A DNA stretch of 64,000 nt from Tubulanus polymorphus (lineage: Eukaryota > Animalia > Nemertea). The position numbers and the translations under genes are program-made. The stretch is from the NCBI RefSeq assembly GCF_964204645.1, contig NC_134029.1, positions 14,564,950-14,628,949 of the forward strand, read 5' to 3'. The notes beneath the pieces are model-generated. The model did not search any database. It was not told where the DNA came from and saw only the letters and a program-made list of their open reading frames with translations. Positions 2,530 to 60,792 of the stretch are shown here, piece after piece. Each line of letters begins with the position of its first letter. The first letter of the stretch is position 1.

Positions 2530-3190
2530 AACTATTACTTTACTTTACTTTTGCTTTATTTGACAAACTCTTGGTCTTAATACAAAGACAATTCGAGTGA
2601 TACAGTATACATAAAAATAAACACATTATATATAGGACGTACAATAGATAGATACATAATTACACATTTATTTTCATGTGAGCTATCAATTGAAAAGTTT
2701 CAAAATTCTACCAACAAAAATACACAGTTTACGGAGTTCGGCTACATCTTTAGTTTGCATTAATAATTTTTATTTGAAAATGTTGGGGGTTCGTATAAAA
2801 TCTCCTGTCTAGGTATAACTCCCTTCTATCATTTAAATATATATAGTTGAAAAGGTGATGAAATTCCCAATTCCATTATTACACAATTTACATATTCTTT
2901 CAGCACGCTCTACATTATTCCATCGGCCAGTTTCTATTGGGAGCTTATGGTTTGCAGTACGGAATTTAGTTAAATTAATTATGAGGTTACCTGAAAGATC
3001 AGAGACTAGATGGTTACGGGGCTTGACTCAATGCCACGCGCTTGGACACGTTCTAATGTTATGTATTGTATACAAAGTGTTGACAAGCTCAATTTATACA
3101 GCATTGTAGCCCTCCGGCATTTTCAAAGTTTTAGATGATTTATCAATAGAAATACTCTTATAATGCGCATCCTTGTGCATTAGTGTTTAA
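2530..3190 (-). mobile_element. 5'-truncated CR1/L2-group LINE 3' end
   Basis: Minus strand encodes LTKFRTANHKLPIETGRWNNVERAERICKLC (ORF2 C-terminus) and ends in AATAAA plus an (AAGTA)n-like tail at about 2535-2560. Confidence 0.75.
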
Positions 3191-3599
3191 GTGATTTTAG
3201 TGTTTTAGTGTCGAATATGTAAAACCGCTGTTTATTAGATTTCGAGTTGTAAGCATTTCCCGATAACTTACATTAATTATAATGCAGAATTCTTTATTTC
3301 CAGTTAACGAGGTTTAACAATTTTTCAGTTTAAAAAAAATATGATTTGGACTTTTTTAATAGGAAAATACTAACAGGTTTGATGAAAAAATAGAAAATGG
3401 GATTTCCGGTTTTATCATTTTTCAGTATATGGCGTTTTAGTAGGATGATGATTTTAAATTCTCAATAAACGCGGTATAACAATTTTTAGGTTTTTGAAAA
3501 ATATGGTTCCAAAGTTAAAAATGATAAAAAATGATACGATAAAAATGTATATAGCGAATATGGGCACAAATCTCAGATATTTCTGTGGCTCCGCAGTAA

Positions 3600-3927
3600 C
3601 TAAAAGCTGGACGTAGGTCGACCTTGTGACGCGATGCGATCCTCGCGTTGCATCGCAAGTTTCGGTGCAAGTCGGTTGCGATACGATTGTGAGCGACTGT
3701 GTGCGACTAGTTTCTGCCAGTCGCAAGAGCGCATAGGTCGGTTGTGACAGTCGTGTAGCGTCGCAGAAAGTAGAACTCCTTGTGACTGGCGTTGCTGACA
3801 GTCGCAACCCGTCGCAAGCGAGCGTAGGTCGATGAGTCGTTGCGACACAATCGTCGCTGGCGGTCGCAGTGAATGGCGTCGCAGTGAGTCACAAGCCGTA
3901 GCAAGGCCGACCTTCGCCCGGCTTAAG
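3600..3927. repeat. GTCGCA/TGCGAC-rich non-autonomous element fragment
   Basis: GC-rich island with dense TCGCA/TGCGA submotifs in both orientations; overlapping ORFs are low complexity. Confidence 0.45.
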
Positions 3928-4156
3928 TCATTAGAAATTAATGAAACACCAGTTTCATTTATGATGAAAAAACTCAAATGAAAAGTCTGGCTTATAAAGC
4001 TGTCTGCTCAGACGAAATTTTCAAAAAAATCTTCATTTTTGGCAATAAAATTGATAATTGTGATTGATCGTTGCAAGTCAGAACCAGTTAATCACTAATT
4101 AACATGCATTTTAATAAATCTGATTCCTCCTTTACAGTGAACTTAGCTTTTCCCTC

Positions 4157-13500: not shown

Positions 13501-14605
13501 TTTCTTTCTTAATTTACATTTGAATTGGATGGTCATCTTGCGTAGGAGTCAGTTTGTCATCGAAGCAATACAGTCTAACTTGTTGACGTCTCAGATGCAG
13601 CGGGACAGGGCGGTCATTATATTGTGGACTTATCCAAATTACACTTACACAGCCCAACGTGTTTCAGTGTGTAAACTCCGTCGTACTCGGCATTATAAGA
13701 CAGTGAGGAATTGAGTTTTAGTCACCTGAGCCCTCGGCTTGATTCGACCAAAAAGACCTTAACTGACTTCACAGAATTTGATTATGAGTCAAGGATTTTC
13801 TAATTTTCTGAATGCTTTCTCCGGTTTTAAGATCAATTCAAATTCAATCTTCAAAATATTTTATTGAAAGAAATTCTACTGAAGACAGATTTTGAAATGA
13901 AGGATATATCCAGGCAAATAATTATAGCAAAATCAACTGATGATCTTCGGCTAATTTGTCTACCCCTGATGATTGAAGCATTTTGGTTACTCGTGCCAAT
14001 TAGTCAGCCACAGTCGATTTTCATGCCATCTGACCTCTTTCCATCTGTAATTAAGCAATCAAATGTAAGAATTACTTAGGTAAGGAGTGAAATAATATAT
14101 AGATATCTTAGGAGACTATTTGAAATCATGAGTTTGTTGTGAAAATCTATTACTACAGTTTCGTAGAGCATAGACACCAAGCCACGTGGCATTGGTATTT
14201 TAGGGGCTATTCAGTTTACTCCAAAAGAAGTCAATGATTAACATTAAAAAAGCTTCATATCAAGGGTATGTTGCAGGACTCGTGACGCCCATGAATTATC
14301 ATCCCATAATTACAATGAATCCAATTATGCATGTACGTTAGCACGACTGATTACTAATCCAAATATTGCATTACAAAAAAAAAATTACGCAAAAACGTCA
14401 AGTACTTACAGCATCTGAGACAGTTGCGCTTAAGTTAGCCTGTTAAGTTACGTCTTTGGATGTCAATGTTGAAAAAGCCTAATTTTAAACATACCCACCA
14501 CAATCATAGAACATGTGAGCAGCTATGGTTTTGTAATTGATTGTGATAACAAAATATGCCTCGTTACCAATTTAATATGGATATACTAAGTTATTCTACT
14601 AAATA

Positions 14606-16285
14606 TAAAACCAAAATAATGAATTGTCACGGGCGACAAAACCAAAAAGAAGAATTGTCGTGGGTGACAAAACCAAAATAATGAATTGTCGCTGGAGATA
14701 AAACCAAAATATTGAATTGTCGCGGGCGACAAAACCAGACTAATGAATTGTCGCGGGCGACAAAACCAAAAAAAGAATTGTCGGGGCGACAAAACCAAAA
14801 TAATGAATTGTCGCGGGCGATAAAACCAAAATAATGAATTGTCGCGGGCGATAAAACCAAAATAATGAATTGTCGCGGGTGACAAAACCAAAATGGTGAA
14901 TTGTCGCAGACGACAAAACCAAAATGATGAATTGTCGCGGGCGACAAAACCAAAAAGAAGAATTGTCGCGGTCGACAAAACCAAAATAATGAATTGTCGC
15001 TGGCGATAAAACCAAAGTAGTGATTTGTCGCGGGCGATAAAACCAAAATATTGAATTTTCACGGGCGACAAAACCAAAATATTGAATTGTCGCGGGCGAC
15101 AAAACCAAACTAATGAATTGTCGCGGGCGACAAAACCAATAAAAGAATTGTGGGGGCGACAAAACCAAAGTAACGAATTGTCGCGGGCGACAAAACCAAA
15201 ATGGTGAATTGTCGCGGGCGACAAAACCAAAATAATGAATTGTCGCTGGCGATAAAACCAAAGTAGTGATTTGTCACGGGCGATAAAACCAAAATATTGA
15301 ATTTTCGCGGGCGACAAAACCAAACTAATGAATTGCCGCGGGCGACAAAACCAAAAAAAGAATTGTGGGGGCGACAAAACCAAAATAATGAATTGTCGCG
15401 GGCGACAGAACCAAAATGGTGAATTGTCCAGGCGACAAAACCAAAATGGTGAATTGTCGCGGGCGACAAAACCAAAATAATGAATTGTCGCGGGCGATAA
15501 AACCAAAATGATGAATTGTCTCGGGTGACAAAACCAAAATAATGAATTGTCGCCGGCGATAAAACCAAAATAATGAATTATCGCGGGCGATAAAATCAAA
15601 ATATTGAATTGTTGCGGGCGATTAAATTAAAATAATGAATTGTCGCGGGCAACAAAACCAAAATATTGAATTGTCGCGGGCGACAAAACCAAAAAAAGAA
15701 TTGTCGCGGGCGACTAAAACAAAATATAAAACCAAAATAATGAATTGTCGCGGGCGACAAAACCAAAAAGAAGAATTGTCGCGGGCGATATAACCAAAAT
15801 AATGAATTGTCGCGGGCGATAAAACCTAAATAATGAATTGTCGCGGGTGACAAAACCAAAATAATGAATTGTCGCGGGCGACAAAACCAAAATGGTGAAT
15901 TGTCGCGGGCGACAAAACCAAAATGTTGAATTGTCGCGGGCGATAAAACCAAAATTTTGAATTGTCGCGGGCGATAAAACCAAAATACAAAAAAAAAATT
16001 GTCGCGGGCGACAAAAACAAAATATAAAACCAAAATAATGAATTGTCGCGGGCGACAAAACCAAAAAGAAGAATTGTTGCAGGCGACAAAACCAAAATAA
16101 TGAATTGTCGCTGGCGATAAAACCAAAGTATTGAATTGTCGTGGGCGATAAAACCAAAATATTGAATTTTCGCGGGCGACAAAACCAAAATAATGAATTG
16201 TCGCGGGCGATAAAACCAAAATATTGAATTGTCGCGTGTGACAAAACCAAAATAATGAATTGTCGCGGGCGACAAAATCAAAATC
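14606..16285. repeat. ~31-bp tandem satellite (AAAACCAAAATAATGAATTGTCGCGGGCGAC), roughly 50-55 units
   Basis: Directly visible tandem array; it explains the stacked repetitive minus-strand ORFs. Confidence 0.97.
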
Positions 16286-16379
16286 ATTGTTTTCTCGCGT
16301 TATTTTAGTTTTGTCGTTTTGTCGTAATGTCGCCCTCATTTGCATATTCGTGTTTTTTTAAATCTTATCAGCCACCATA

Positions 16380-17873
16380 CTAAAGCCTTAAGGTCGCGTA
16401 AAACTCGATAAACACTTCAAGCGACACAGCGAACGATCTCCTTTCCCCCACAGCCAACGCTTAACCTAGTAGAGGCTACTAGCCTATGTAGGCCTATGTA
16501 TATGCAGGGAAGTGTGATGATCATCACACTTCCCTGGTATATGCGTAGGCCTAACATCCGGACAGATTGGTCGTAGGCCTATTGAATAACAACCCACCTA
16601 GATATCGTAAATTTTGTTTTGAAGTTCAATCCAATGAGTCCGTTAATAAACGCAACAATTATACTGTGTTTGTTTGTTTGTTTGAGTAAAGCTCAGTACC
16701 GGTAGGCCTAAAGCCGCGTCAAACTCGATAAACACTTCAAGCGACACAGCGAACGATCCCTTTACCCCACAGCGAACGCTTACTCCGAATGTCAAGTGTG
16801 AGTCCAGCATACGGAAAGGATTGTGTTATATACTTGTATTTAGTAAATACCTTGTGGATTTGACAATGATCGGTATGTACTGTAGGAAATAGGCCTATAG
16901 AGTATTGATAAATGGTTGAAGCCCGCGGCCGAATAAAGTAATATATTCTTTTATTTTGATACCTCGTCGACATAACAGCTTTTCTCCGCCATATCTCTTC
17001 GGCCTGTTTAGTTTAGGCCTACGATTCCCCGGTACACTAAAGATTTATCTTAGTAAATACACGGTTAATTCGGTAAAGAAAAATTGGTATTGTTAAACGA
17101 ACTCCTTGAAACCCGCAGCCAAATCACTGGTAGTAATAAATTAATTTGTCCTCGATTTGATTCTCATGATGAGGAGAAACTCGCAGCTCATCCCCGGAAC
17201 GTCGATGTAGTAACACACGTCGATTCGTCGATGTTTACGGCTCGACAGTGCTTTTAAAATCTAAAGCAGTAAATTTCCAGTGTATCGGTAATATGATTTG
17301 ATGAGGAAAATGGGCTATTGTTAAAATCACTGTTTGAAGACCGCGACTGAATGTGAAGTCTGCGGCAATAAATTAGTTCATTTATACTTGAATTGATAAT
17401 CGAAGTGACAGTCGGCCTGCGGGTTGATTTCGGGATGACGACTCGAAAAAAATGTCGCCCCATTGAATGGGGCTCAATTTTCGATGTTTACAGCCCGACA
17501 GCGCTTTTGTAACGACGATTCGTGAAAAAACACGCGGGCTATTTGTAGATCTCAGTGAGCTGAACGATATTATATGGATTGTGTATGAAACAGCGGTAAG
17601 GTAACAAAGCCTATGTTCTTTTGGTAAAAATAGTGTGGAAAATAATAATAATAATAATCACGCGGATATCAATAGGGTTTTCTGTGAAATAACAGAAAAC
17701 CCTAATAATAAGAAACACGCGAATCTCAATAGGGTTTTCTGTGATGTAACAGAAAACCCTAATAATAATAAGAAACACGCGAATCTCAATAGGGTTTTCT
17801 GTGATGTAACAAAAAACCCTAATAATCACGCGGATATCAATAGGGTTTTCTGTGAAATAACAGAAAACCCTAA
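16380..17873 (-). mobile_element. Family B element with tandemly amplified hairpin end
   Basis: Homologous to 4157-5341; ends in four AGGGTTTTCTGT-N6-ACAGAAAACCCT hairpin units next to (AAT)n. Confidence 0.75.
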
Positions 17874-18291
17874 TTAGTAAATCTATATGCTACAAATATA
17901 ACAATAACTGTTCCACCTAAAATCCATATTATTTCATATTTCTGTTGTTCTTTACTCGGGGTATAATAATCTGATAATTTAGGTTTGTATGGATGTAATT
18001 TTTCTTTATTGGTTACCGCGTTATATAAACTCATTGCATCATCAACTGATTGAAAATCTCTATGTGAAATCTTCTGATCATATAATTCCTTGTTAATATA
18101 ATCCATATAGTTTTGCCTCTTTTCTCTATATTCTTCTGCTGCTTTATTATATTTCTCTAATGCTAAATTATGTCTTCTTTGTTCTCCTAATGAACAATTT
18201 TATCAATATGCTTAAATAAATAACCACCACCAGTAAATGCTAAAGCGTTAACAATTGCCGATCCTATAATAGTTATAATTGCAGAAGCCAT
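17870..18291 (-). pseudogene. Small Polinton-associated protein with hydrophobic N- and C-termini (one frameshift near 18195)
   Basis: MASAIITIIGSAIVNALAFTGGGYLFKH...EQRRHNLALEKYNKAAEEYREKRQNY joins the 78-aa ORF MDYINKELY...IIWILGGTVIVIFVAY. Confidence 0.7.
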
Positions 18292-18315
18292 TTATTTAGT
18301 AAAATAATTACGCAT

Positions 18316-18537
18316 TTATATGGGAGGAATATATTTTTGTTTTTCCAAATAATCAATAGTTAAATTAGATAAAGTAACTGCTAATGTTAATTTTAAGATA
18401 TCATTTATATCAAATCTATCAACATTAACACTTCCCATTTTGAATACTTTTTTTAATACCATTGAATAACCAACAGTTCCAACTGATAGTAATGCGCCAT
18501 TATATAATCCAGTTATTATCCACTTATTATCACTCAT
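18316..18537 (-). CDS. Small hydrophobic Polinton-associated protein (73 aa)
   Basis: Intact ORF with TAAATG start and two hydrophobic segments; packed head-to-tail with its neighbours. Confidence 0.7.
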   Translation of the reverse strand: MSDNKWIITGLYNGALLSVGTVGYSMVLKKVFKMGSVNVDRFDINDILKLTLAVTLSNLTIDYLEKQKYIPPI

Positions 18538-18540
18538 TTA

Positions 18541-18894
18541 TTAATCAAAAAAATAACTATCTTCAAAATATTTAGTTATCTTAGTGATGATTAATTCAAC
18601 ATTAATTTCATTATTAGTTTCATTTGTATACATTTCAATTATTATTTTTTTAATATCATCGATGATAAAATCTTCATCTAATTCATAAAATCTTAAAGAT
18701 TCTCTAATTAAATTAGTAATCTTTTCTACATTTAAAGTTTCTTTATCTATTGTTTTTTCATACTTAAATGTTGTTTCATTAGAAAATGCAATATTTTTGA
18801 TTTGTGTAATTACATCATTAATGTTAAATTTCATTTCTTTCTCACGTTTAAAATCAAACCCAAAACATATACTCGGTCCAACAGTTATATTCAT
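18541..18894 (-). CDS. Hypothetical acidic protein (117 aa)
   Basis: Intact ORF preceded by GTAATTTTTT..TAAATG; no recognisable motif. Confidence 0.6.
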   Translation of the reverse strand: MNITVGPSICFGFDFKREKEMKFNINDVITQIKNIAFSNETTFKYEKTIDKETLNVEKITNLIRESLRFYELDEDFIIDDIKKIIIEMYTNETNNEINVELIITKITKYFEDSYFFD

Positions 18895-18910
18895 TTATAT
18901 AATGAAAAAA

Positions 18911-19703
18911 TTACTCTTTACATCTTATAACTAATTCATAAATTACAGGAAAGTTATTCAAATCAATTAAATATCCATTATGATTTCTTATTCCTAATTT
19001 AAAATTATTGAAATGTGGAATACAAGGTTTTAAAATCACATTCAGCTAAATTATAATTTATTTGCGTTCCAAATTGTTTAACGTTCTTCAATGGTAAAAT
19101 ATTTAATATACTAGAATTACATGTTGTATCTTTAGTTGCTTCAAATGTTTTTGTAGGATCGATTAAATTGCAATAAATATAAAAGTGTGTAAAAGGTATT
19201 ATATTTGAATTACCGTATGTGTTTCCAACAATAAGTTTATTTGGAAGAATTCCTAACAGTTTAGCAAAAGGTTTTTTTACCGCGTAAGCATGTTTGTTTG
19301 AATGAAAATGATTATGATTACCAATATTTTCATCAACAAACTTTATCTTAATTTTATTAGAGCTCTCACTTTTTATAAATTTAATATTAAATCTAGAATC
19401 ACTACCTAACACAATCCGAGCTTTTCTATTAATTTCTTGCTCTAATGTTTCTAAATTATATAATCCTGGTGTTAGATAAAGTTTAATCCATTTATCACTA
19501 ATTTTATCAAAAATAAAAAGGATTCTATGTTCATCAGTTTTATCTGATATATTGTAAAATGAGTTACATAAACTTATATTTACTAATTTTAAATCAACAC
19601 AATTGTTAAATTCTCTATCTAATTGAACTAGTAAATTATGTGATTTATAATTTGTAAGTTTTCTAGAATCAACAAATATTCTGTATTCTTTTAATTCACC
19701 CAT
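18911..19703 (-). pseudogene. Minor capsid (penton/single jelly-roll)-like protein, frameshift near 19010
   Basis: IFVDSR...LKLVNISLCNSFYNIS...LTPGLYNLETLEQEIN...LLGI...FYIYCNLI...ILNILPL; continues in another frame as FKLGIRNHNGYLIDLNNFPVIYELVIRCKE*. Confidence 0.7.
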
Positions 19704-19761
19704 TATTTATAACACAAAAAAATTACCTCTCATCACCACTAGTAATTTTTTTCCTTAATAA

Positions 19762-21087
19762 ATGGATGAGAAGATAGGATGTGAAATTTGTGGTGAACTT
19801 CTAAGAAAAAGTAATATGGCTCGACATATGAAAAAACATGATGAAAATTATAAACCCCCTAAACTAAACTGCCCAAAATGTAATAAATTATTCACAAGAA
19901 ATTATGTTAAAAAACATTCAGAGAAGTGTAAAATTAATGGCGCAACGGCTAATGTTGATAGTAACGAAAGTAATAGTAATTCTGTTGAAGTTGAACCTGA
20001 AATTATTTGGAAAAGACCTTTCTTATTCTATGATAAGGATAATATAAAAGATCATTTCTGTGAGCCTTGTCGAATAAAATATAGCCCTGAAAATATAGAA
20101 GATTGGGAGAATCATCAATTTCGTAAAGCACATATAGATAAAATTTCTAATAAATTTGAAACTGAATTCAATTAAAGAAAAAATAGTTTATTAGAAAAAA
20201 TAAGATATGAGAAAACGTTACCAGATTATAAAGAAACAGTTGAAAAGTTAGAAAAACAATATAATGAATTAACAAGAAAAACATATTATTGTAAATATTG
20301 TAAATTGATTATTACAACAAGTAATTCAAATCTACATAATAGAACAATAAAACATAAAGAAAACGTAAGAAAATACCAAGAGCTTAATGAAGATCTATTA
20401 CCAAGAAATTATAAACAAAAATGCCCACAATGTAATTACGCGACCTTAAGACAAGAAGGTACTGTGTTATTTTGTGTTGATTGTGGATGGCAAAAGAATT
20501 TATGGGGTGAAGAAAAAACTAGAAATTTTCTCATAGATCCAAAATTAAATTATCTAGATGAAATTTTTGAAATATTTTCTATAGAAGATCATACACCAGA
20601 ATATATGCAATGGCTTGAAAAAATGAAAATAATAGAAAATAAAAATGGTGAAATAACTAAAAAAGATATTATAAAAACAATTATTCCGTCAACATTTAAC
20701 ACAAAACAAAAGAAAATGTATTTATATTTATTATTCAACGATTATTATGAAAAACCTAAATTAACAGAAGAAGATATGGAAAATATAGAAAAAATATTTA
20801 AACAAATATTAATGTATCATTTGAAAAATAGAATAACAGATTCAATAAATTATGAATTCTTTTTAAATAAGATTGTAAATTATTTAAACATCGATATTAT
20901 GATTCCATTTGATGAATTAACGAACAAAAAGAAACAAAGAGAGCGAGATGAAATGTGGAATAATATAGAACTTTATTTAAATGAGAAAAATGAAATGGAA
21001 GAACCTAAACAAATTAAACAAGAACAATTAAATGAAAAAGAAGAAACCAATAGTGATTTAGAGTTTGATGATATTGATCCATTTTAA
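19762..21087 (+). pseudogene. Multi-C2H2 zinc-finger protein fused to a poxvirus VLTF3 (A2-like) late transcription factor domain; single in-frame TAA at 20173-20175
   Basis: ORFs 19762 and 20305 are in the same frame. Four C2H2-like fingers, then CPQC..G.VLFCVDCG and PKLTEEDMENIEKIFKQI...INYEFFLNKI...KKQRERDEMWNNIELYL, following the VLTF3 pattern. Confidence 0.65.
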
Positions 21088-21539
21088 TAACCATAAGGTA
21101 ATGTTTTTATACCATCATCTGAAATATGTCTTTTATCATCAAATGGATTTAAACTAGTTTTTTCAACTTCATTAATGTACATCTCGTGATCTTCTGATCT
21201 TAAACAATTCATTTTATGTTTCATTACAATTGAGTTATATAAACACTTTATATAATCTTGGAATTCTATATGTTTATCAACCACATGTTTTGTTATTCCT
21301 TTTAACTTTTTAGCTTCATGATCTTTTGTTCTGTAACTATACATTTTACTTCTTATCCCAACAAATTCAATCATTTCATCACCCCCTAATTCATGTTTAA
21401 ACTTACCAGGAATCTTTTTATTATCATTGCTAAATAGTTCATGATCTTTGGGATAATTGCTAAAATCAAAATGATGTTTTAATGTTTTTAAGTCTTTTGT
21501 TATGTCATTTGTCTTGATTTTTAGTATGTAGGCGTCAGT

Positions 21540-22604
21540 ATTGACTGCTATTGATGGAAATCCACAGTTAAATGTACCATCTTCAGTTGATTAATCATAA
21601 ACATAATCTGTTGGGTTATATATTTCAAATAAATCCTTAACTTCTTCTGTTAACTCATTTTCTACATGGCTTAAATTAAAGCAATTTGGTTTAGATTTAA
21701 TCAATCCAATATTCATATTAAAACCTAATGAATTGCATAACATATTCAATCCTGATATAGCAACTTTTCCTTTTTGAGCTAAAGATATTGTTTTGCGGTT
21801 TTTGAAACTTTTAGTACCATCTGCTGCGTAGAATCCAATGAAGAACCATTTTCTTAATTTATTTTTTGCATTTAATACATAATCTGGAACAATCTTTTCT
21901 TTAGTTGAAGTATTACTTTTCACTATTGCATGAATATAGAATTCGTCATTATATTTTATAGCAAAATCTTTAGGATTATTCACATGTATTCTATAACATT
22001 GCGATGATTTCATAACATCTATGATTTTGAATGTTTTATGTGAATAAACTTCTTCACAGAATTTCTTTATTCTTTCTAATAATTTCAAATCTTGATTGCA
22101 TAAAAACCAGCAATATTGAGTGCGATTAACATAATTATACACACCTGCTGAACCATCTCCCATGAAAAATCCTTTGATAAAATATTATTTTTCTTCTAAT
22201 GTTTCGGGTTCTATGTTATAAATATTATCAATTATTTAATCAGATGACATATGATTCATTCTTTGGAAAAATCTTTTATGTAATAATTCATCTCCAATTT
22301 TTATATCAGTTGGTTTTATTTCATCGCCATTTCGTTTAATTAAACTATGATCTTCTGTAACATCTACAAACCCTAATTTAGTTCTAACTCTATAGATTTT
22401 CTTATTTGTTTTATGCCTAATAATATTCTTTAATTTTTTCCATCCATTTCTTGTCCAAACATCCATTAATCCATTTATTTGTATTAATTCTTTTTCACCA
22501 TATGAAATATAACATTCATTTTGTTTTGGAATTATTTCTGAAATTCTTCTTATCAATATTTTATCATTACATTTTAATAATATTGGGGTGTCAGCTGTTA
22601 CAGA
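21540..22604 (-). mobile_element. Intein with LAGLIDADG homing endonuclease in pPolB motif C (355 codons, three in-frame TAA)
   Basis: Block A SVTADTPI, block B VDVTEDHSL, LAGLIDADG motifs FIKGFFMGDG and FFIGFYAADG, block F YVYD*STEDGTF, terminal Asn followed by +1 Thr. Removal restores ILYFDTDAYIL in frame. Confidence 0.95.
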
Positions 22605-23619
22605 ATCAAAATATAATATTTCAATATGCTTTTCCCCAAAAAGTGGTTGTAAAACATTATAATAAAAATCATATATTAATAATTTTGATACTTCTAAAAC
22701 AGTTGAACCAATGAATATAGGTTTATTAAATTTCATTGACGTTCTTTTTAATTTAACTGCTGTTAAATAATCTTCAAATCTTTTATTTCCTAAATGTCTA
22801 GGACTTGATTGTAAATGTCTTAATCGTTCAGAATTATTTACTAATTCAATATCATTTCTATTTCTAATATTTTCACATGTTTTACCATAAAAACTATTAT
22901 TCATTGATTTGAAGAAATCTTTTTCAAAATCTGTTTTTGATATGGATCTCTGTTGAGTATTAAAATCTATATATTTTTCTAACCACTTCGATTGATTAAA
23001 TTCAATATATCTATGTACTTTCTTTAATTTCATTCCTTGTTTTAGATAAAATTTCAACATTCTATAATGAACGATATAATTGTATTTATTATTTTGAGTA
23101 AGTATTAATTTTTCTGTAAAAACATGATCTTTCGGTTTTATTTTCTTCTGGTATTCACTTAAATAACTATCATCTACAGTTAAATGTTCTGGGCAATAAG
23201 GTAAGTTTCTTGTTTTAAACTTTATATTTTCAGGATATTCTAAATCAACTACAAAGAAATAACCAATAGGTGCTTCATCTTCTAAACTCATAATTGCGCT
23301 TTCCCAATTAGTTTTATCATCATTTTCAACTTCTGTTAATATCAAATTTTTATATGGTTGAGGTTGCATCATTGCCCAACCATATAAATTATTGGCGTCA
23401 ATATATAATAATTTATATTCGTCATTTGCTTTAAAATACCCCATAATACCCCATATCTCCCATAACACCACTAATTCCACCTCTAATTGATTTTTCAAAT
23501 AATAAAACCATATCTGGTTCTTTTAATAAACCTAATTCTACATTTGTATATTTTAAACCACATTGCCAGGTTAAACCAGGACTAGAGTAGCAATAACAAG
23601 GATCAACATTAAAACTCTT

Positions 23620-24238
23620 TCCATGCTAACTGTGACCGGACGACACAGTCTCCAGAACGCTTTGTTTTTGCGCGGTGTGGCGCCACGTCACAGGTGTTTG
23701 ACCTACTTATCCCCTTACTGCCTAAATGGCAATGTATAAAGCTTATACGGCTTGTATGTATGCCTGGTAGTCCTGGCAACCCCAGGGACTTGTTTTTGTT
23801 CGAGTTCGCTGGCGGGTGTATGAATAAAATCTATGTAGGTCACGAAAATCAATAACGGTGAATCGATGTCAAGTTGTGTAAACAAAGTAGGGCAAAATTG
23901 AAAGCTTTATAAATAGACACAGCGGCTGGTATACGGTGTCTATACATGACGCAGTGGATATAATGAAGATATATAGAGAGAATATGAAGCTGCAGTTAGG
24001 GGTAGGGGTACCCGAATGACCCGAAAGTAGGTCGAATTTTTTTTTTGGACATTTTGGGGGCCCCTAACGACCCCAGAATAGCTAGATCATCAGAAACAAG
24101 CTGAATCATCATATTTTAGTGTAGGGAAGCGTATTAGACCGTCTAGAAGTTTGAGAACCCAATATTTTTTGAAAAAATTTTTTTTTCAAAATAAAGTTAG
24201 CAAAATCTCAGGATCTGGTTTTTAGAGAAGTCGCATGA
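23620..24238. mobile_element. ~620-bp non-autonomous insertion in pPolB
   Basis: Removing it rejoins FREVNL/KSFNVDPCYCYSSPGLTW; ends TCCATGC...GCATGA with TT on both sides. Confidence 0.8.
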
Positions 24239-26527
24239 TTCAAATTAACTTCTCTAAATTTTTCAAATATGTCAGCCAATATCATAACATCTGATTTTAA
24301 ATATAAATCAACTATTTCACCATGATTTTTCATCTTAAAATGGTTCCAAATATTTAATGTTCTATTATACACTTCGTCTTTCACATACTCCTCTTTTAAT
24401 TGATCATAAAATTGATCTTTTAATAATTCTGTTACATTAAAATCATTGTGTGTTTTATAAAATGAATAAGGAATTGCGCCTTTATATCTCAATAATTTAA
24501 AATCTTGGTCATTTGGATAATAATATCGAGTTATTATAAAATCATTATCAACTAAACTTTTTGATAAATTATCTAATGAACTTGCTAGAAATCTATAAGA
24601 ATCTAAAAATCTAATGCAACCAAATTGAAATGAAATATAATTTTCAGATGTTTTAGCTAATAGTTTAAAATCATATTTTCTTACATTTACACCATTCATA
24701 GCATTATATTCTTCTATTTCTTGATTAATTGAACCCAATTTTCCTGATAATTGTTTATAAATAGATGGGTATCATAGCCTGTTAAATTATGAAATAATAT
24801 TGGTACGAAATTAACTTTCTTAGCTTGTAAATTGCAATCTTCATGAGCAGCTCCACGATATTTTGAATTTAAATGATCATGATCTCTTACTTTTTTATCA
24901 AATGAATAAAAACGTTTTTCACAATAACAACAATGAGTTGCATAATTAAAATGAATTTCATCTTCTTTTGTCATAACTATTCTTTTATTTTTGTTTAATA
25001 ATTTTGCAAAATCACTTTCTAATTCAATCATGTTGTTACAAAAATCATTAACTACATCTTCACCTCTAAAAGAAATATATTGACTTTCATATAATTCAGG
25101 ATAATTTGATTTTATATAAATTCCATAAGCAGCAGCTCTTTGATGAACTTTTTAAATTGTATTTATAATCGGTGGGTCTTGTATTGTGTCTTCATTTAAT
25201 TCATTTCCTTTATCCATTGATTTTAATAATTGCTTTTTGTTATATATTTCTTTTCTATCTTGATCAGTTAATTCTTTATTCAACGATTCAAAATCCCCAT
25301 AAATTACAAATGGAACAATATTCTTAAATTTATGATTAGTAAATTTCAATTTATAATCTTTTTCTGTTGGCATTATTAATTTACAAAAATCTTTATTATC
25401 ACATAATTCTTCATGTTTTAATAATGTATTCTCAGTCATAAATTTAGATAAACATTTTCACTTTTATTACTTTTTGATGTTTTATTTCTTTTTGTATTAT
25501 AAACATTTAAATCTAAATATATAATTTCATTCAATGTTAAGCCAGAACCCTCAAAATATCTTTCTTCAATATGACGTTTAAATTCATTGAATATTTTTTC
25601 TAACTTCTCTTTTATTTGTGTTTTTGAAATTATTTCTTCAGAGTGTGTTTGAATATTATAATCCATTTTTTCTTCTGACTTAAAAAAACTTACTTTCCCA
25701 GAGGTACTAATTTTTGGATATTCAACATCTGTTATCAAATCTAGTATTTTTTCTATTATTTCATTAAATGTACTATAATCTTCTATTGTTGTACCTTTAA
25801 AAAATCTAAATATAATGGCTGCAGGACCAATTTTACTATGTAATGTTTCTAAAATTTCAATTGTATCTTTTATTTCTAGTGAATCAATATAATTTCTAAC
25901 ATTTTCCATGTAAGGTTTATTTGAAATGGATTTAGTTTTTGAAGTTGGTTTTTTTACTTGTTGAGGTTTATCATCAAAATAACCTTTTCCAAAAACATTA
26001 TTACTCAAATTTTGATGGTGTTTTTGTGATTCGAGATGTCTTTTATAATTCCTTTTTACTATAAATTCATTACAAACTTCACATTTTATTTCATCCACAT
26101 TCATATCATATAATCGTTCTTTTCTTTCATTTTCTGGAGTTTCAAAATCTATTACATTTTTTATATGATTTGCAGATTTTTCATGTTTAGATTTATTAGA
26201 TTTATCAATGTATTTTTTACAATATGGACAATAATATTGATTTTCATTAACATCAATTTGTTCTGTCTTATTCTCTCCCATTTATGAGGAAAAAAATTAC
26301 TTGTGGTGATGAGTGGGGATTACTTCCCCTTGTATATAACAAGCACGCTATTAACCGTTCTCACCCAAGCCTCACAGCATCTATTTATCCGAGCACAGTT
26401 GACACGCAATCACTGTAATACAGTAATAGCACACGCGTTAATAACCGTTCTCGGCTTAAAAGCGTCGTCGTGAAGTACAGACGTGTTTTCGGCGCTCTCC
26501 GTGAATACAATACCAGCAAAGTAAACA

Positions 26528-27577
26528 ATGGATCTTCAACAAGCTAGAACCTTCCGATACAACAACATGATGGCAAAAGACTTTAAAAACTTCTTGCTCG
26601 TACCAAAGATTCGAGTACAATACAGCAAATTGGACATAAACCAGATTTGTGAAATTCTACACAACGACCGAACATCGAGTGAATGCATCGAAAAAGTTAT
26701 TGATTTTAACCCGTACAATGTCGGTGTATTCTGTGGTTCATCCGACAAATACGATATTTTGAAGAGACATACAATCAGTCACAGAGGAGCAACAGTAAGA
26801 TTTAGATCAGCGCTTGAAACTCCAACAATTTTAAGAATAGAAGGTGTCCCGACCGACTGCCCACATGATGTAGTTGACAGCATCATAAAACGATATGGAA
26901 ACATTCTGACAGGGTCTTATCACCCAACACTTGGCAAAACAAACTTCCGTAACGGTGAGAAGCGAGTCCTGGAAGTAGTTATTTCCTCGCCGATCCCGAG
27001 GAACATTGCTTTAGAATCAAAACTTTATGGACTTTTACTCATCCGAGTATACTACAACGGTCAGCCAGATCACTGCGCGATTTGCGGAGAATTCAACCAC
27101 ACGTGGGTTGAATGCCAGGTTACGTGTTCGCATCCGACACACACCCCGGATCGCTGCAGACAAATTCATCATCGACAGAATATGGCTTCGCAAGGTATAA
27201 GGAAGACCAATCCAACACCAGCAGAAGCAGCAAGCACTACCAGTAAAGTTCCAGATACCAGGGTTGTGGAAACTGTCGCGGCCAAGACCAACTCGAAACC
27301 CGAGGAAACCAGGAAGAGACCGTCCTCTCCTACTGAGCTGCCGCAGACACCGAAGAAGTCTCAGAGGATCCCTACATCTACCACTGACAATGAGGCTCCG
27401 GTAGCCACGACAAAAAAACCACAGACGCCAAACAAAGACGATGAACCCGCGATGGATGATGGAAGCGTGGCTACGACCGAACCCGCGAAAACGAGTCCAC
27501 CACAAGTGAATCGGACACAGAAGAAAACTCAACCCAAAACCGGGACAGCAAAGCCAAAAAACAAGAGAACGACCTAA
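26528..27577 (+). CDS. Tx1-type ORF1 (RRM-like region, CCHC knuckle, disordered tail)
   Basis: Intact 349 aa; RVYYNGQPDHCAICGEFNHTWVEC. Confidence 0.88.
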   Translation: MDLQQARTFRYNNMMAKDFKNFLLVPKIRVQYSKLDINQICEILHNDRTSSECIEKVIDFNPYNVGVFCGSSDKYDILKRHTISHRGATVRFRSALETPTILRIEGVPTDCPHDVVDSIIKRYGNILTGSYHPTLGKTNFRNGEKRVLEVVISSPIPRNIALESKLYGLLLIRVYYNGQPDHCAICGEFNHTWVECQVTCSHPTHTPDRCRQIHHRQNMASQGIRKTNPTPAEAASTTSKVPDTRVVETVAAKTNSKPEETRKRPSSPTELPQTPKKSQRIPTSTTDNEAPVATTKKPQTPNKDDEPAMDDGSVATTEPAKTSPPQVNRTQKKTQPKTGTAKPKNKRTT

Positions 27578-27618
27578 GGTGATGTATATTTTCCACTTAT
27601 TATGTAGGTACTGAAAAC

Positions 27619-30600
27619 ATGGCGAATACATTAGGACGTATTAGATTATTATCACTCAATTGCAATGGCTTAGCCTACTCTAACTCTCGAACTATAAGCA
27701 TTTTTGAAAAACTTAAGCTGCACGATATCTTCTTACTACAAGAAACCCATTTATCTAGTGACTACGAAATTCAAAAGAAATTTAAACCCTTATCGAGGAA
27801 TTTTGAGATATTATCTAACTTTACGAATGAGAGAAAATGTGGAGTAACTATTGGCATTAGGAGATCTTTAAACTATTCAATTTTAAGTAACTCAACGGAC
27901 ACACAAGGCAGGTTAATGGCTTTGAAAATCTCTATATCTGGTCAAATTTATAACATTGTCAATATTTACGCCCCGAATAAAGAGCGCGATAGGAAAAATT
28001 TTATAAACAATATCAGTAATTATCTCAACCTCAATCAAAATGAACATACAATAATAGCTGGAGATTTTAATTGTATAGAGAGTCCTTTAGATCGAGAATC
28101 AACATCTGCCAATTCGTCGAGTATAAGAAGTGGTTCAGAACAATTAGCAAACTTATGTCAACAATACAGATTAGCAGACGCCTACAGACTTAAAAATCCA
28201 GACACACCAGCATTCTCTAGAGTAGCAAAACGAAATAACAATGTAATTAAAACAAGAATAGATCGATTTTATGTATCAGACACTCTACAGCCAGACATAG
28301 AGCATGTGAAACATGTCAACTCTATTCATTCCGATCACAAGATCGTCGAATTAGTAATTAACTCCTCTCAAGGTAAACGTGGCAAGGGATACTGGCATCT
28401 CAACAAAGAACTACTGCAGAACCCTAATTACATCACTATGATAACAGACTTTTGGACACAATGGCAAAATCACAAACTATTCTACGACTCAATTATTGAA
28501 TGGTGGGAAGAGGGCAAAATTCAAATAAAAACCAGATCAATAAAATTTGCTTCAGAACTCAGGTAAATCAAAAACAATCTTAAGAAATCTTTAGAATCTG
28601 AATTATTCATTCTCGAAAAACTCTCTGATTTAGGGGTAAACACTAACCTCACTAAAATCAAATTGAATACCTTACCAAACGTATTCGCGACTTCGAAATT
28701 GAAAAAGCAAAAAGTGCAATGATTAGATCAAAGATCGAGTGGAGAGAATTCGGAGAGAAGACAAGTACTTTCTTTGCAAATTATGAAAAGCAACGCGCTA
28801 AAGCGAATCACATCAGAACTCTCAAAAACGATTTAGGTGAAATTAAAACTGGTCAAAAAGACATTGAAAAAGTTCAACTTAATTTCTATAAACACCTATA
28901 TAGAAAAGAAGAAATCGATTTGGAAACCCAAAATATATTCCTGGCTAATCTACCTCAAATCTCTAATCAAAAGAAACTTCAGCATGACTCCGAAATAGAT
29001 ATCAACGAATTAACAAATTCGGTCAAATCTTTTCAAAATAATAAATCTCCCGGTATAGACGGTCTACCTATTGAATTTTATAGAACATTTTGGTATACTC
29101 TCCGAGATGACTTTCTGCAGTTAGTACACGCGTGTATACAAGAAAATAGACTTTCTAAATCAATGCAAACCGGCATTATATCATTAATTCATAAGAAAAA
29201 TGACAAAACAGCCTTAAAAAATTGGAGACCAATCTCTTGACTATGTACAGATTACAAAATATTCACAAAAGTTCTCGCTAACAGACTAATCAACTGTCTA
29301 ACAGACATAATTCACCCTGACCAGACATGTAGCGTGAAGGGACGTCGAATCCAAGACAACGGTCATATAATTAGAGACTTAATTGATTACGTTAATAATG
29401 ATAATTTAGAAGCATTTTTAGTAACCATTGATCAAATGAAAGCTTTCGACCGCATCGACTGGCAGTATATGTTTAAAACTTTAGAATCTTTCGGTTTTGG
29501 AGAAAATCTAATTAAATATATCAAAACTTGTTATTCAAATCCAAAATCCAGAATTAAAAGTAATGGCTTCTTAACTAAACCGTTCACTTAAGAAAGAGGC
29601 GTAAGACAGGGATGTCCCATGAGCGCAATACTCTACATAATAGCAGCAGAACCACTAGCAATTAAAATACGTGAAAACAACAACATTAAAGGAGTAAAAC
29701 TACCGGACGACACAGAAATTAAAATCAAGCAATACGCAGATGACACTACATTATGTCTCACTGACTTAGAGTCTTTAGACCAAGTTTTTACAACGTTAAC
29801 CCTTTTCGAACGAGCGTCAGGTGCAAAAGTTAATAAAGATAAAACTGAATGTATGTGGATTGGATCATGGAAAAATAGAAACGATAAACCTTTAGACTTA
29901 AATTGGAAGAAATCAATGAAAATTTATGGTATTCATTTTGGCAATGAAAATACTGATGATTTAAACTGGAATCCAAAAGTTAATAAAATTCAAAATATAA
30001 TAAACCTCTGGCGCCAAACTAAACTATCTTTACACGGCAAAAAGGTCGTCATAAACTCATTTATATTACCGCTTTTATGGTACACTTCCGAAATATTTCC
30101 AGTCCCGGACAAGTATATCAAAATCTTTGAACCAAAAATCGTCAATTTCCTATGGGACAATGGAAAACGACTTGTCGGCAAAAACATACTACACAAAAAA
30201 ATCGAACACGGAGGCCTCGACATACACAACATAAAATACAGACAACAAACACAGGCAATTACAACGATCATTAACCACGCTCTAAAACCTACACACTGGA
30301 AACCACTAATTAACTACAATCTGCAAAAATACATTGGCCCTGGCTGGAATATGTCAAACATCATTCACAATGAGCTACCTAAAAAAACAATTTCAAACGA
30401 CTACTACAGACATTTATTAAAAGCATGGACAGTTTTTCAACAACATCTGACTTCGACGGAAACCATTACTGAAATTTTGCAGAAACCTATTTTTGGCAAT
30501 CCAAAAATTAAGCTCAACAGGAAAACTGATTTCACACAGTACATACAACACGGTATAACCAATTTGCAACATTTATTTGATAATCGTGGCAATTATAAAC

Positions 30601-31439
30601 CACTTAATGAAACTCCGTTAACAAATAGATTAAAACACACACGTATACACAATGCGATACCGCAACATTGGAAACTAATTATATCTGACCAAAATTTAGA
30701 TCCTGGCGAGTTACCGAAAATCTACGTCCAGTTTGATAACATAAGTTGTGCTGTAGGAAAAATTTCATCATCTCAAATTTATAGAATTTTATTATTAAAA
30801 AATCTCCATCAAATCACGCCAATTGGACAAACAAAAATTACTGAAATGCTAAATATGGATCTGAATTGGCCGGAAATTTGGAATGAAGTTTATAATAAAC
30901 ATATTGATAAACGGTTTAGTGATATTCATTGGAAATTACTACATAATACTCTTGCAATAGCTTCAAAATTAGTACTTTGGAAAATAAAAACTGATCCAAA
31001 TTGTAAAATTTGCGGACGCGCGGCAACAAATGACCATGTAGTATACTCATGCACAGAAGCACAACAATTATATTCACGCATACAACCAATCTTTGAACGC
31101 ATAATAGGCACACCTATACGAATCACTCGAGACATCGTCTACACAGGAATTACCAAAACAATAGAAAGAGACTTTTTCAAACGCACACTTGCGAACTATC
31201 TTTTATTTCTTGCACAATTCATTTTGTACAAGAATCATTACAATCTAGAACAGGGCTCTGGTCGCATCAACACTATAATTTATTTCAAAAACGCACTTAT
31301 AGATCGCATAAACCAAGAAATAATACTGCAACAAAATCTTCATATTTGGAGTCTTAACAATATATTTATAAACCTAGACGTAAACGGACTAAATACAGTA
31401 AACAGAATCACAATTGACACTATCGATGTAGTCTATTAA
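27619..31439 (+). pseudogene. Tx1/L1 ORF2 (APE endonuclease, reverse transcriptase, C-terminal zinc finger)
   Basis: SLNCNG, LQETH, AGDFN, RIDRFY, SDH; KSPGIDGLPIEFY, RQGCPMS, QYADD; CKICG...HVVYSC. Disrupted near 28566-28680 and by stops at 29240 and 29591. Confidence 0.93.
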
Positions 31440-32892
31440 TTACTTAACCTAACGCCTTTTATTAGTTTAGTACACCTACATATCCTGACTTTGACACTTG
31501 AGGTATGTTCTGATTTAGAATGAACAGGGATGACGGTCTATCAATGCGCATAGAACTGTCTGACCACTTTTGTCCTATATCATCACATACGCATAGATAC
31601 CTTATTGTTTCTGGTTTTGGACTGTAAACTCAGTCTCACTGCCGCGATAACTGGAAAGCTGCCTCCGTTTTGGCTTCAGGATAGCAAGCTCAGTCTATTT
31701 TTGTGCAGTGGTGATTGGAAGGTTGCCTCCTGACACCGGTCTCATTAAGACCTACCAAAAAAAACAACCTAATTGTGACAAATGATTAACTGGGCGTGCC
31801 GCCTTGGTGATCACTGACGGTCTTCCATTACGCTAGCACTGTCAGATAGCCGCCAGAGTGGCATGCAATTTTTTGATCATGCCTGTAAATAAAACCCGAT
31901 CAAGACTGTACATATGTATCATTGTATTAATCAAACTCGCGTGCCTGTGTCGCTTTCTTACTGACGGTCTATCAATGCGCATAGCACTGTCTGTTTGATC
32001 GCGACGCATCCACGGACCTAACTATGCACTGTATATTAGAAACACAAAACTGCTCCACGTGTACAACTTTTAATTTTAGGCAAACTCAGCACCAGATGTG
32101 AAGTACCAACTGCACCCCTTGACGGAGAAACCTATCCTCATCGGAGCGTGCACCGTCGATGTCATACAACTACACTTCGGATACCAGGACCAAACTCTCA
32201 TCTGGATAATTTGCTTTTCAAAATGTGCTTCCGTTTTATCTAGTCAGCACGCGGGACAATCAACTTAGAGGATTTTTACACCAACATCTACCCGAGGAAA
32301 GGCTACAATAAACATTCGGACTATTTACACGTGGAAAACGACCAAAAAAATGTTAAAAATTGACAAAATGATCTTCAACCTTGTAATATAGTTATTTCCT
32401 AAATCTTGATGTATTAAATTAGGCAGCCAACTAAATTAACCCCAATCAGTCGCTTGCCGGTTCAGACTGCTTGGATGATTGTTTGAATGAACCGGAACCG
32501 AAAATTTCAAATTATGTACTTCGATTTAAACAAAAAATTCTGTAAACTCGACCGCCGATCACACAACTATATTTGTACTTCGATTTCCGATTTCAAAATC
32601 AAACCCCCTGTTTCTTTCCCGGCAGGTGTGGTGGGTTTGTAAGGGACACCAAATAAAAAAATCAAACGAAATTTACCAATCAAATAAATCACAGGGTCAA
32701 CCCCTATTTTAAGATAAAAAAAAATAACCGTTCTCGGTAGCACCTCGCTGTATCGATCTATCCACGCGCAGTTGTTGTTACGCGCACTCACTGTATACGT
32801 GTGTCACAACGCTGTTGACCATTCTCGGCCTAGCTGTGACGAGTGGTGTCTCGTACTCTCGTACTCTGGTATGAAACCCACATCTTCCAATT

Positions 32893-33125
32893 ACTGACAG
32901 TATTTAAAATCGGGTCCTCTCACGGGACAGTATTCCAAATCGGGTCCTCTCATGGGACAGTGTGTTGAATCGGGCCCTCTCACGTGACATGATTTGAAAC
33001 CAGGTCCTCTCACGGGACAGTAAGTTGATTCGGGTCCTCTCACGGGACAGTATTTAAAATCGGGTCCTCTCACGGGATATTGTGTTGAATCGGGACCTCT
33101 CACGGGACGGTAACTTGAATCGCGG
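32893..33125. repeat. ~30-bp tandem repeat (AATCGGGTCCTCTCACGGGACAGT..), about 7 units
   Basis: Visible tandem units; related motif again at about 33375-33428. Confidence 0.85.
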
Positions 33126-33466
33126 GTTCCGTTGTAAAATCCTGCGTGAAAAACGTGAATTCATATCCCCTATTGTCCCCCTGGCCCTGCAGTAAATTAG
33201 AATTTTTCGGTAGGCCTTTATGTATTTATAAATGAAATCAAAATGGAAAATGTAGTAATCACAATCGATAGTTGAATTTATTTATTCATAATCGTTATTG
33301 GCAGAATACATAAGAATATTGGGACTCGAAACCGCTAGCATTGGAATCGACGTTTCATGTAAGAATTCTACATTTGTCCCGTGAAAGGACCCATGTACAG
33401 TCACAGGACGTGTCCTCTCACGGGACGCTGCGGTTTAACTCATATGCAAAAATGAGCGAGCAAGAC

Positions 33467-48178: not shown

Positions 48179-49387
48179 GTTTTTAGCCCACTTGGGAATC
48201 CAGTTATTTTGGGAAGTTTTGAAGACGCTTCAAGGGAATGTCTTGACATTTGGGTAACACATGTATCTACCCTAGACACATCTTCAGCCCAAAAACTGGC
48301 CCTGTCAGATTCAAGATGGCCGACTGGTGGCCATTGTTGTTCGCCAAAATCAGCGCTTTTTACACATTTTTGAACTTTTTGAGGGAAATTTTGAAGACGC
48401 TTTGATCAATTACCTTGATCTTTCGGATATATGTGAATTCCCCCAGGGCCCATCAGCATAACAAAAATTGGGTCGATCGGACTCAAGATGGCCGTCCTAT
48501 GACCTTTTTAGTGCCCAAAAATGTTAATTTTGGCCCAAATTCTGAGTCCTGTAGCTTCCTACTGGTTTATCATTTCTCATTGCAATTTGTGATGGGTATT
48601 CTTTGGAAAGGGATGTTTTATTATTACCAGTAATGTTACCAGTAGTATTACCAATTATGACGCAATTGGCGGCCATCTTGGTGTCAGCAGTACTCGTTCG
48701 TAAGTGGGAAAACGTTTTTTCCACATTATATTGATACCTAAGCGTATTTTGTTACCACAATCATTTAGAAAGTTGTAGCTCATAACGTGTTCTATGATTG
48801 TGGTGAGTTTCAAGGTTATTGGTTTTTGTATATGGCCACCAGGGGGCGTTGAATAATACAATATCTTAGTATTTCTATATTATATTCGTATCAATGCATA
48901 TTTTGTAACCACAATCAATTGAAAAGTTGTAGCTCATGTCATCTATGATTTTGGCAAGTTTTAAGGCCATTAGTTATTGTATATGGTCACCAGGGGGCGT
49001 TGAATAGTAGAATAACTTATTATTTTTCTTATTATATTGGTACCTAGGCATATTTTGTTACCATGATCAATTACAAAGTTATAGTTCGTGACATGTTCTA
49101 TGATTGTGGTGAGTTTCAAGGTCATTGGGTTTTGAATATGGTCACCAGGGGGCGTTGAATAGTAGAATAACTTAGTATTTCCATATTATAGTGGTAACGA
49201 GGCATATTTTATTATCACAATCAATTACAAAATCGTAGCTGCTGACATGTTCTATGATTATGGTGAGTTTCAAGGTTATTGGATTCTGTATATGGTCACC
49301 AGGGGGCGTTGAATATTGAAATTGTTAGATTGTTGAGCATTTGGTACCACTTCCCAAGTGGGCATGGTGTCCCTGGACCCCTAGTTT
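48179..49387 (+). mobile_element. Family A near-complete copy with ~140-bp internal repeats
   Basis: TTTTAGCCCACTTGG ... repeated GGTCACCAGGGGGCGTTG ... GGACCCCTAGTT. Confidence 0.82.
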
Positions 49388-60721: not shown

Positions 60722-60792
60722 AATCGTAAGTGATGTACTGATTTTAATCTAACACATTAACTTTCTTTTAAACAATTATCTAACTTTTTCTC

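Follow-up and report, generated by a model that had tools for sequence, protein, structure and literature searches.

A broken pol-c-type intein in the protein-primed DNA polymerase of a Polinton-type element and its kinship to giant-virus polymerase inteins

Family B DNA polymerases (PolBs) of giant viruses and archaea hold inteins at the YGD|TDS site, as a first-pass annotation of the locus described here had stated, and the same insertion site was seen at this locus. Inteins of eukaryotic nuclei include those of Prp8 and VMA1 in fungi and protists. For these and other nuclear inteins, the accessible portion of PMC5784728 names fungi, algae, amoebozoa, choanoflagellates and an apusozoan, together with giant viruses, and includes no animal and no Polinton; the words "polinton" and "maverick" are absent from four of its five supplementary files. 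Inserts of another kind have been described in Polinton polymerases. The HNH and VSR inserts of pPolB2 are described as nuclease domains that lack a splicing domain, and the word "intein" is not used for them in the accessible text of PMC10748475. The accessible text of PMC11161782, citing that work, suggests "intein invasions" in one sentence on nuclease inserts in Polinton protein-primed PolBs (pPolBs). Five terms searched for are absent from the accessible part of PMC8502044. In the literature searched, which also covered parts of PMC12220804, PMC3749507, PMC5718144 and bioRxiv 10.64898/2026.10.13.758929, pPolB inteins that include a splicing domain are not reported, and an earlier mention is possible in InBase, Repbase, most subscription papers or bioRxiv supplements. 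The clade of pPolB pol-c inteins presented below is apparently undescribed so far.

The split motif C and the inserted intein

The window, a stretch of 64 kb that was analysed as a whole, contains a pPolB on its minus strand. In the translation of this strand, motif C is split as YFD|TD by an in-frame insert of 1065 nt (355 codons), with ILYFD upstream and TDAYIL downstream. The insert (21540..22604, minus strand) runs in a single frame from Ser1 to Asn355, from SVTADTP to IAVN, and contains three in-frame TAA stops at 22236-22238, 22185-22187 and 21591-21593. The split motif and the one-frame insert with its three TAA codons had been noted in the first-pass annotation and were reproduced by translation. 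The common frame of the ORFs 22236-23498, 21591-22163 and 21084-21374, also noted there, was confirmed from the ORF list. The copy is dead, as had been claimed: besides the three stops in the intein, the polymerase itself is broken. Base composition gave no foreign mark, with a GC content of 0.26 in the intein and of 0.24 and 0.26 in the exteins.

Profile searches were performed with the insert read with X at the stops, and both kinds of match on which the first-pass annotation had staked its reading, Hint and LAGLIDADG, were found. The intein N-terminal model TIGR01445 scored 30.9 bits over residues 2-88 (cut-off 24.5), and Pfam LAGLIDADG_3 (PF14528) matched over its cut-off with E 2e-7. Pfam Intein_splicing (PF14890) matched the window copy with E 3.5e-5, under the cut-off, and the relative P0004 over the cut-off. 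The best protein match to the insert had E 1e-134. An AlphaFold model of the intein, built on a 52-row alignment, had a pLDDT of 91.9 and matched structures of intein homing endonucleases with E 1e-16. PI-PkoII, TliVMA, PhoVMA, PI-PfuI, PI-SceI and I-DmoI were the best fold matches in the PDB, and the best named viral ones were polymerases of a phycodnavirus, Pandoravirus, Marseillevirus and Megavirus. According to the model, the insert has a Hint + LAGLIDADG fold. Profile, protein and fold matches alike greatly exceed what chance would give.

Three regions were delimited. The N-terminal splicing (Hint) region comprises approximately residues 1-110 (22275..22604, minus strand) with Ser1 and block B Thr83/His86, as placed by TIGR01445 and the secondary structure of the model. 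The two-motif LAGLIDADG homing endonuclease occupies approximately residues 139-312 (21669..22190, minus strand; PF14528 and fold). Its region gave fold matches to I-DmoI, PI-PkoII and PI-SceI, and the one stop that the window copy has there lies at the region's start. Both LAGLIDADG motifs survive, as had been stated, with the catalytic Asp150 and Asp262 intact. The C-terminal splicing region, approximately residues 320-355 (21540..21647, minus strand; translation and model), contains block F Asp337, the terminal Asn and one stop. Ser1, Thr83, His86, Asp150, Asp262, Asp337 and the terminal Asn are retained in all 22 complete pPolB inteins. Conservation, determined over 36 pairs of nine representatives, was 51% for the nuclease, 53% and 57% for the splicing regions and 30% for the linker.

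The insert has the marks of a Class 1 intein, namely an N-terminal Ser, Thr-x-x-His in block B, a terminal Asn, a +1 Thr and a precise in-frame insertion with intein-free homologues (P0392, P0511 and 94 others). It has those of the pol-c allele as well, with insertion at YxD|TD of motif C and kinship to pol-c inteins. The motif blocks that the first-pass annotation had named for the Mimivirus PolB intein (SVTGDTP, IRHKT.KKIYRV, DVTEDHSL, GFFMGDG and YVYDL) were located by eye in its published sequence, and the similarity in length stated there proved correct (351 aa for Mimivirus, 355 aa here). A Hedgehog-type Hint domain was rejected on the basis of the central nuclease, the terminal Asn and the existing empty allele.

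The penultimate residue of the window intein is Val, and the usual His is absent. The first-pass annotation had read this residue correctly, but the family varies at this position and Val is not unusual in it. Among the 216 complete inteins that we extracted, 96 end in HN, 83 in KN and 37 in neither, so that 120 have no penultimate His, and Val was rejected as a special feature. The Mimivirus PolB intein has Lys in this position, according to the accessible part of the PMC5784728 supplement.

The host element and its copies

The N-extein (22605..26281, minus strand) was traced by tblastn of P0511, with PF03175 and PF02945 on its pieces. It lacks approximately 168 residues, changes frame several times, contains an in-frame stop and is interrupted by an insertion of 621 nt, and the missing stretch includes the vOTU cysteine motif that relatives have. 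The C-extein (21084..21539, minus strand; tblastn) begins with the +1 Thr of motif C and is 83% identical to the intein-free P0511 and P0392; along P0511, the window exteins show 59-83% identity. PF03175 was at its cut-off on a window piece and clear on P0003, P0004, P0006, P0133 and P0143, and neither P0511 nor P0393 had a Pfam match at E 0.001. On upstream pieces of the window pPolB, an Endonuclease_7 (HNH-type) insert was found. The foreign insertion (23614..24234) was placed by the read joint 23613-24235 of insertion-free sister copies, which is supported by 152 reads from run X6 and by X1 and X2 contigs. The insertion is absent from many sister copies and is itself deeply covered in X6; terminal repeats or a target duplication were not clearly seen in it. 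Its halves differ in contig depth, and it may be composite.

Further genes accompany the polymerase. A likely minor capsid (penton-like) gene (19005..19703, minus strand) is a lead from Atlas feature matches with recognition under the tool threshold. Its features belong to unnamed viral clusters, PF21507 V18-19 and PF01686 penton at 0.95-0.98, and it had no Pfam match. A zinc-finger protein gene with one in-frame stop (19762..21087, plus strand; zf-C2H2, zf-U1) is convergent with the pPolB gene. Small AT-rich ORFs of no family (17880..18894, minus strand; ORF list and Pfam) also belong to the element. The AT-rich fragment extends approximately over 17880..26316 (~8.4 kb), as judged from GC and from loose read ends at 26316, and has a GC content of 23-27% outside the 621-nt insertion. 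No integrase, packaging ATPase, protease or major capsid gene was found in the 48 reading frames scanned in the window, and neither terminal inverted repeats nor a 6-bp target duplication was found there for the fragment. Because the copy is truncated and these hallmarks were not found, the element is filed as a Polinton-type fragment only.

Some features of the noncoding DNA were recorded alongside. Among the five likely gene starts in the element, four read TAAATG (18537, 18894, 19762 and 26281), compared with 26 of all 372 ATGs in it. The motif TAAATG is the late-promoter motif of poxviruses, and such gene starts would be in line with a helper large DNA virus transcribing the element. A leader of ~60 nt, 73% alike, precedes the zinc-finger and pPolB gene starts (19703-19766 and 26276-26339) and is possibly a common promoter. 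Tandem arrays are located at 14545-16350 (31 nt), 17633-17877 (~57 nt) and 32866-33138 (30 nt). The ~57-nt array has internal palindromes and abuts the left end of the element.

About half of the sampled words occur in four runs of the host species (organism A), all from one study, and no RNA run was among the matches listed. X6 is a raw DNA run from a second study; 12% of it (1.93 Gb) was read, and the reads were aligned at 85% likeness. They cover all 30 bins, with a depth of 156-247 over the intein and 361-407 over the exteins, and number 1367, 11210, 9864 and 6082 in four identity bands. We infer that even a 100-Mb genome would need approximately eight copies. The element is endogenous, as the first-pass annotation had held, and multi-copy, and the read coverage shows many divergent copies. 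Two of the three stops in the window copy are contradicted by nearly all X6 reads (168/168 and 209/218) and are therefore private to this copy; several of its letters have no support in X6. A joint that skips the intein was not found among the best 15 of 111 joints in X6 reads, even though the exteins are covered more deeply than the intein.

The 64-kb window contained no host gene, tRNA or Rfam match. Domain searches identified three decayed LINEs (26525-31439, 46600-54596 and 59195-63544) and a piggyBac-type transposase (51434-53035) between pieces of one LINE. Two of the LINEs appear CR1/L2-like and Jockey/I-like by eye. LINEs of the CR1/L2 and Jockey/I types are typical of animals, and from these types, judged by eye, the host is probably an animal.

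Relatives, empty alleles and the possible source of the intein

The intein search returned 328 long proteins (best 120 used) and 33 of similar length, and 1296 intein representatives were obtained at E up to 1e-10 (best 150 used). Intact pPolBs were the best single-intein matches: P0003 with 61% and P0004 with 48% identity, followed by P0005, P0006, P0007, P0011 and P0013. The partial relatives P0175, P0177 and P0180 are 64-75% identical. The P0004 cluster has 136 members, on contigs of up to 1 Mb among the matches listed, and the P0007 cluster has 121. Intact pPolB inteins are present in at least nine lineages besides that of the window. Those that are complete measure 333-355 aa and include no mini-intein. 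Viral contigs scanned with P0003 and P0511 yielded no relative, and a scan for the C-terminal motif yielded 11 metagenome and 4 viral loci, among which only L045 is a pPolB.

The 216 complete inteins come from a set of 510 proteins plus the ORFs of 52 loci, and 173 of them belong to RNA-primed PolBs by a motif rule. The tree set contained 179 distinct inteins of 300-450 aa; P0002 and P0211 were dropped, and five rows were labelled pPolB by hand. All 22 complete pPolB inteins (ten lineages including the window) formed one clade in the 179-row tree (SH 100), and the 11 in a 63-row tree were monophyletic (100/100), in a set whose rows were all collected through similarity to the query, a way of sampling that tends to give a tight clade. 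Their identity to the window intein is 39-61%, compared with at most 41% for giant-virus inteins. Inteins of RNA-primed PolBs (PF00136), many on giant-virus MAG contigs, are the next kin with up to 41% identity. The closest giant-virus subgroup has the C-terminal signature FN[CST]GFPL, with a weak sister link (92/48 in the 63-row tree). Archaeal pol-c inteins mostly show 23-29% identity over long matches, and those of two archaeal MAGs 34-35%. The alignment with giant-virus and archaeal pol-c inteins that had been proposed as a check showed kinship to giant-virus PolB inteins. Trees and profiles upheld the central claim that a pol-c-class LAGLIDADG intein sits in a protein-primed PolB and has giant-virus PolB inteins as its nearest non-pPolB kin.

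The same intein family was encountered in other proteins. It is present in the type II topoisomerases P0008, P0105, P0111, P0122, P0344, P0345, P0362 and P0366, mostly at QD|TDG, a site that mimics the D|TD site of the polymerases. The nuclear DNA polymerase delta of Chloropicon primus (P0091; also P0248) contains a full pol-c intein, and the intein of P0091 groups with those of P0101 and P0372 (100/99). Polymerase delta is missing from the proteins that Table 1 of PMC5784728 gives as common hosts of nuclear inteins. PolB inteins of the giant-virus type, unlike the usual archaeal pol-c ones, were found in L055 and L056 (both at 3001-4005), which come from a Promethearchaeota MAG and another archaeal MAG; they could be real or lie on mis-binned viral contigs. 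The phage polymerases L024 and L053 also carry this family.

The search with the N-extein returned 1831 proteins of at most 1421 aa, which excludes intact filled ones. Scoring of the best 120 gave 95 empty, 4 filled and 21 unscored, a ratio that is biased by the length limit. The nearest N-extein kin of the window gene among the matches listed are empty (P0392 with 88%, P0393-P0395 with 68-73%). An extein tree was built from 120 rows with filled proteins and cluster members added. It required 9 changes between filled and empty, 7 of them forced by starred branches, compared with a shuffled mean of 18.7. Judged from this tree, the state is both clustered and labile. The 15 members listed for the P0004 cluster (90%) include 7 filled and 4 empty ones, and the 15 listed for the P0007 cluster (90%) include 5 filled and 1 empty. 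Both intein-plus and intein-minus relatives, for which the first-pass annotation had advised a search, thus exist even within single families.

The flanks of the site were compared in six pairs. The filled P0140 and the empty P0143 are identical over 200 residues before and 169 after the site, with the whole intein as the difference between them. In the pair P0004/P0133, 4 of the 10 residues preceding the site differ, as do only 9 of the 990 farther upstream and 13 of the 150 that follow it; the clustering on the N-side (4/13 within 10/1000 columns) has a p value of 3e-6. In the distant pairs P0002/P0392 and P0003/P0402, no clustering of differences at the site was observed. The P0004/P0133 pattern could reflect a conversion tract donated by a sister family or empty alleles that resist cutting, and either would imply an active nuclease. 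In P0006 the intein is 42-49% identical to the others, and the extein near the site 17-30%. Outside P0006, the identities of intein and extein run in parallel (62/58, 66/68, 58/54 and 77/79). Because the two divergences roughly match, the association appears to be old, with homing mostly within families. The first-pass annotation had proposed separate intein and extein trees, in which incongruence would support transfer. At the family level the two trees agree; the intein of P0006, with its distant extein, is best explained as a lateral jump into a very different pPolB class. These comparisons of sequences point to an old, still-homing intein lineage of Polintons.

With phage and archaeal pol-c inteins as outgroups, the best trees nested the pPolB clade in giant-virus-type inteins (SH-aLRT 85-95), and the three best trees placed it beside the FN[CST]GFPL subgroup. 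With phage outgroups, a tree constrained to keep all non-pPolB viral-type inteins in one group could not be rejected (p-AU 0.225), and with archaeal outgroups such a tree scored 9 log units above the free one (p-AU 0.686). Kinship to giant-virus inteins is firm. Transfer in the direction from giant virus to Polinton is favoured by the best trees, and the AU tests give it no support. Because the tests do not back the direction, co-infection is only something that we infer. The exchange between giant virus and Polinton that the first-pass annotation had proposed is supported in its kinship part by the trees. The picture of a single recent jump gave way to an old multi-copy clade, since the pPolB inteins are 39-61% identical to the window intein and giant-virus ones at most 41%, and a recent single jump from a giant virus was rejected.

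Other readings of these data were weighed. One ancient gain with vertical descent and repeated precise loss, in which the nuclease no longer homes and is kept for another role such as folding or splicing, agrees with identities that track each other outside P0006, with family-level agreement of the trees and with the clustering of the filled/empty label (9 changes, shuffled mean 18.7). It has little chance of being right, as P0006 needs a lateral jump, the catalytic aspartates are present in 22/22, conservation of the nuclease equals that of the splicing domain, no mini-intein is found among the complete pPolB inteins (333-355 aa) and the differences between P0004 and P0133 cluster at the site. 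It is also unlikely that the locus lies outside an animal germline, in another repeat-rich eukaryote, a co-sequenced symbiont or a mis-assembly. Such a source is suggested by the window without host gene, tRNA or Rfam match, by HNH-insert pPolBs in oomycete Polintons (accessible part of PMC10748475) and by the letters of the window copy that X6 does not support. However, runs of 2024 and 2026 from two studies under one species label cover all 30 bins with divergent copies, the 621-nt insert that breaks the gene has deep X6 coverage of its own, and the window holds three decayed LINEs, two of animal-typical look by eye, and a piggyBac-type transposase.

The intein may also home among Polintons without having come from a giant virus, as a sister lineage, by reverse transfer or from a third party such as a phage, an archaeon or a protist polymerase delta, and co-infection would then not be implied. 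The AU tests do not reject, and once prefer, a root on the pPolB branch, and the family also occurs in Chloropicon polymerase delta, topoisomerases, L055/L056 and the phages L024/L053. We regard this reading as somewhat unlikely: the three best trees place the clade beside the giant-virus FN[CST]GFPL subgroup, inteins of RNA-primed PolBs are far more numerous and diverse in the set (173/216), and the very long outgroup branch means that a root on the long pPolB branch may be attraction. Donation by a giant virus that shared a cell with the Polinton is somewhat more probable than not, and is the least certain part of the preferred reading.

Proposed mechanism and comparison with known systems

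In intein splicing, the N-terminal Ser undergoes an N-O shift, the +1 residue takes over the N-extein and the terminal Asn cyclises. The same splicing residues are listed for the Mimivirus intein in the accessible part of PMC549080. By analogy, Ser1 would make the N-O shift, the +1 Thr would take over the N-extein and Asn355 would cyclise, and the joined YxDTD would restore the catalytic aspartates of the polymerase. Since motif C needs restoring, splicing would be obligatory and only precise loss tolerated. The nuclease would cut the empty site, and repair from a filled copy would convert the empty copy, sometimes with a few flanking codons. The intein would cycle in this way through gain and loss inside families, and its lineage would have jumped at least once to a very different pPolB class (P0006). 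In summary of our preferred reading, which we consider probable, the window copy is a broken pol-c LAGLIDADG intein whose intact relatives are predicted to splice and likely home between intein-bearing and intein-free Polinton copies; a giant-virus polymerase is the likely source of the lineage, through one transfer.

With an intact, apparently mobile clade in protein-primed polymerases, the pol-c allele, described from RNA-primed polymerases, now extends across the deepest split of family B. As the polymerase needs intein splicing, upkeep of the intein would imply that these Polinton polymerases are expressed and at work. Because filled and empty alleles occur next to each other, they offer a system for watching homing in a multi-copy element, and the kinship to giant-virus inteins makes it testable whether animal Polintons meet or depend on large DNA viruses. 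More tentatively, and as a possibility that we hold short of probable, Polintons may carry their own old homing inteins from giant-virus polymerases, a natural homing-endonuclease drive among copies in animal germlines. If true, the inteins would be the first genuine ones in animal chromosomes and would record genetically that animal Polintons replicate in the same cells as large DNA viruses.

Mimivirus and other giant-virus PolB inteins (accessible parts of PMC549080 and PMC5784728) resemble the window intein in the YGD|TDS site, in Ser1, Asn and +1 Thr and in the LAGLIDADG nuclease. The window and Mimivirus inteins have motif blocks in common, and the top viral fold matches are giant-virus polymerases. 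They differ in the host protein, which is a protein-primed PolB (PF03175) of Polinton type in the window and an RNA-primed PolB (PF00136) in giant viruses. The window intein lies in eukaryotic chromosomal repeat DNA and ends in FNxGFP rather than in FHAG[VI]G. Archaeal PolB pol-c inteins share the insertion site and the Hint + LAGLIDADG architecture, but are mostly 23-29% identical and separated by a very long branch. The same architecture is found in PI-PkoII, TliVMA, PI-PfuI and PI-SceI. Nuclear Prp8 and VMA1 inteins are likewise found in eukaryotic chromosomes with a patchy distribution, but their carriers are host genes, whereas the carrier here is a multi-copy endogenous virus-like element. 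In the accessible parts of PMC8502044 and PMC11161782, Polintons/Mavericks and adintoviruses match the window element in pPolB motifs, a zinc-finger gene, AT-richness and many copies, and possibly in a penton gene; unlike them, the window fragment is only 8.4 kb long, and integrase, ATPase, protease, major capsid gene and terminal repeats were not found in it. The HNH and VSR inserts described in pPolB2 are also nuclease domains in Polinton polymerases, and the window pPolB has an HNH-type insert as well. In contrast to these inserts, the window intein has a full splicing domain and a LAGLIDADG nuclease, and sits in the catalytic motif.
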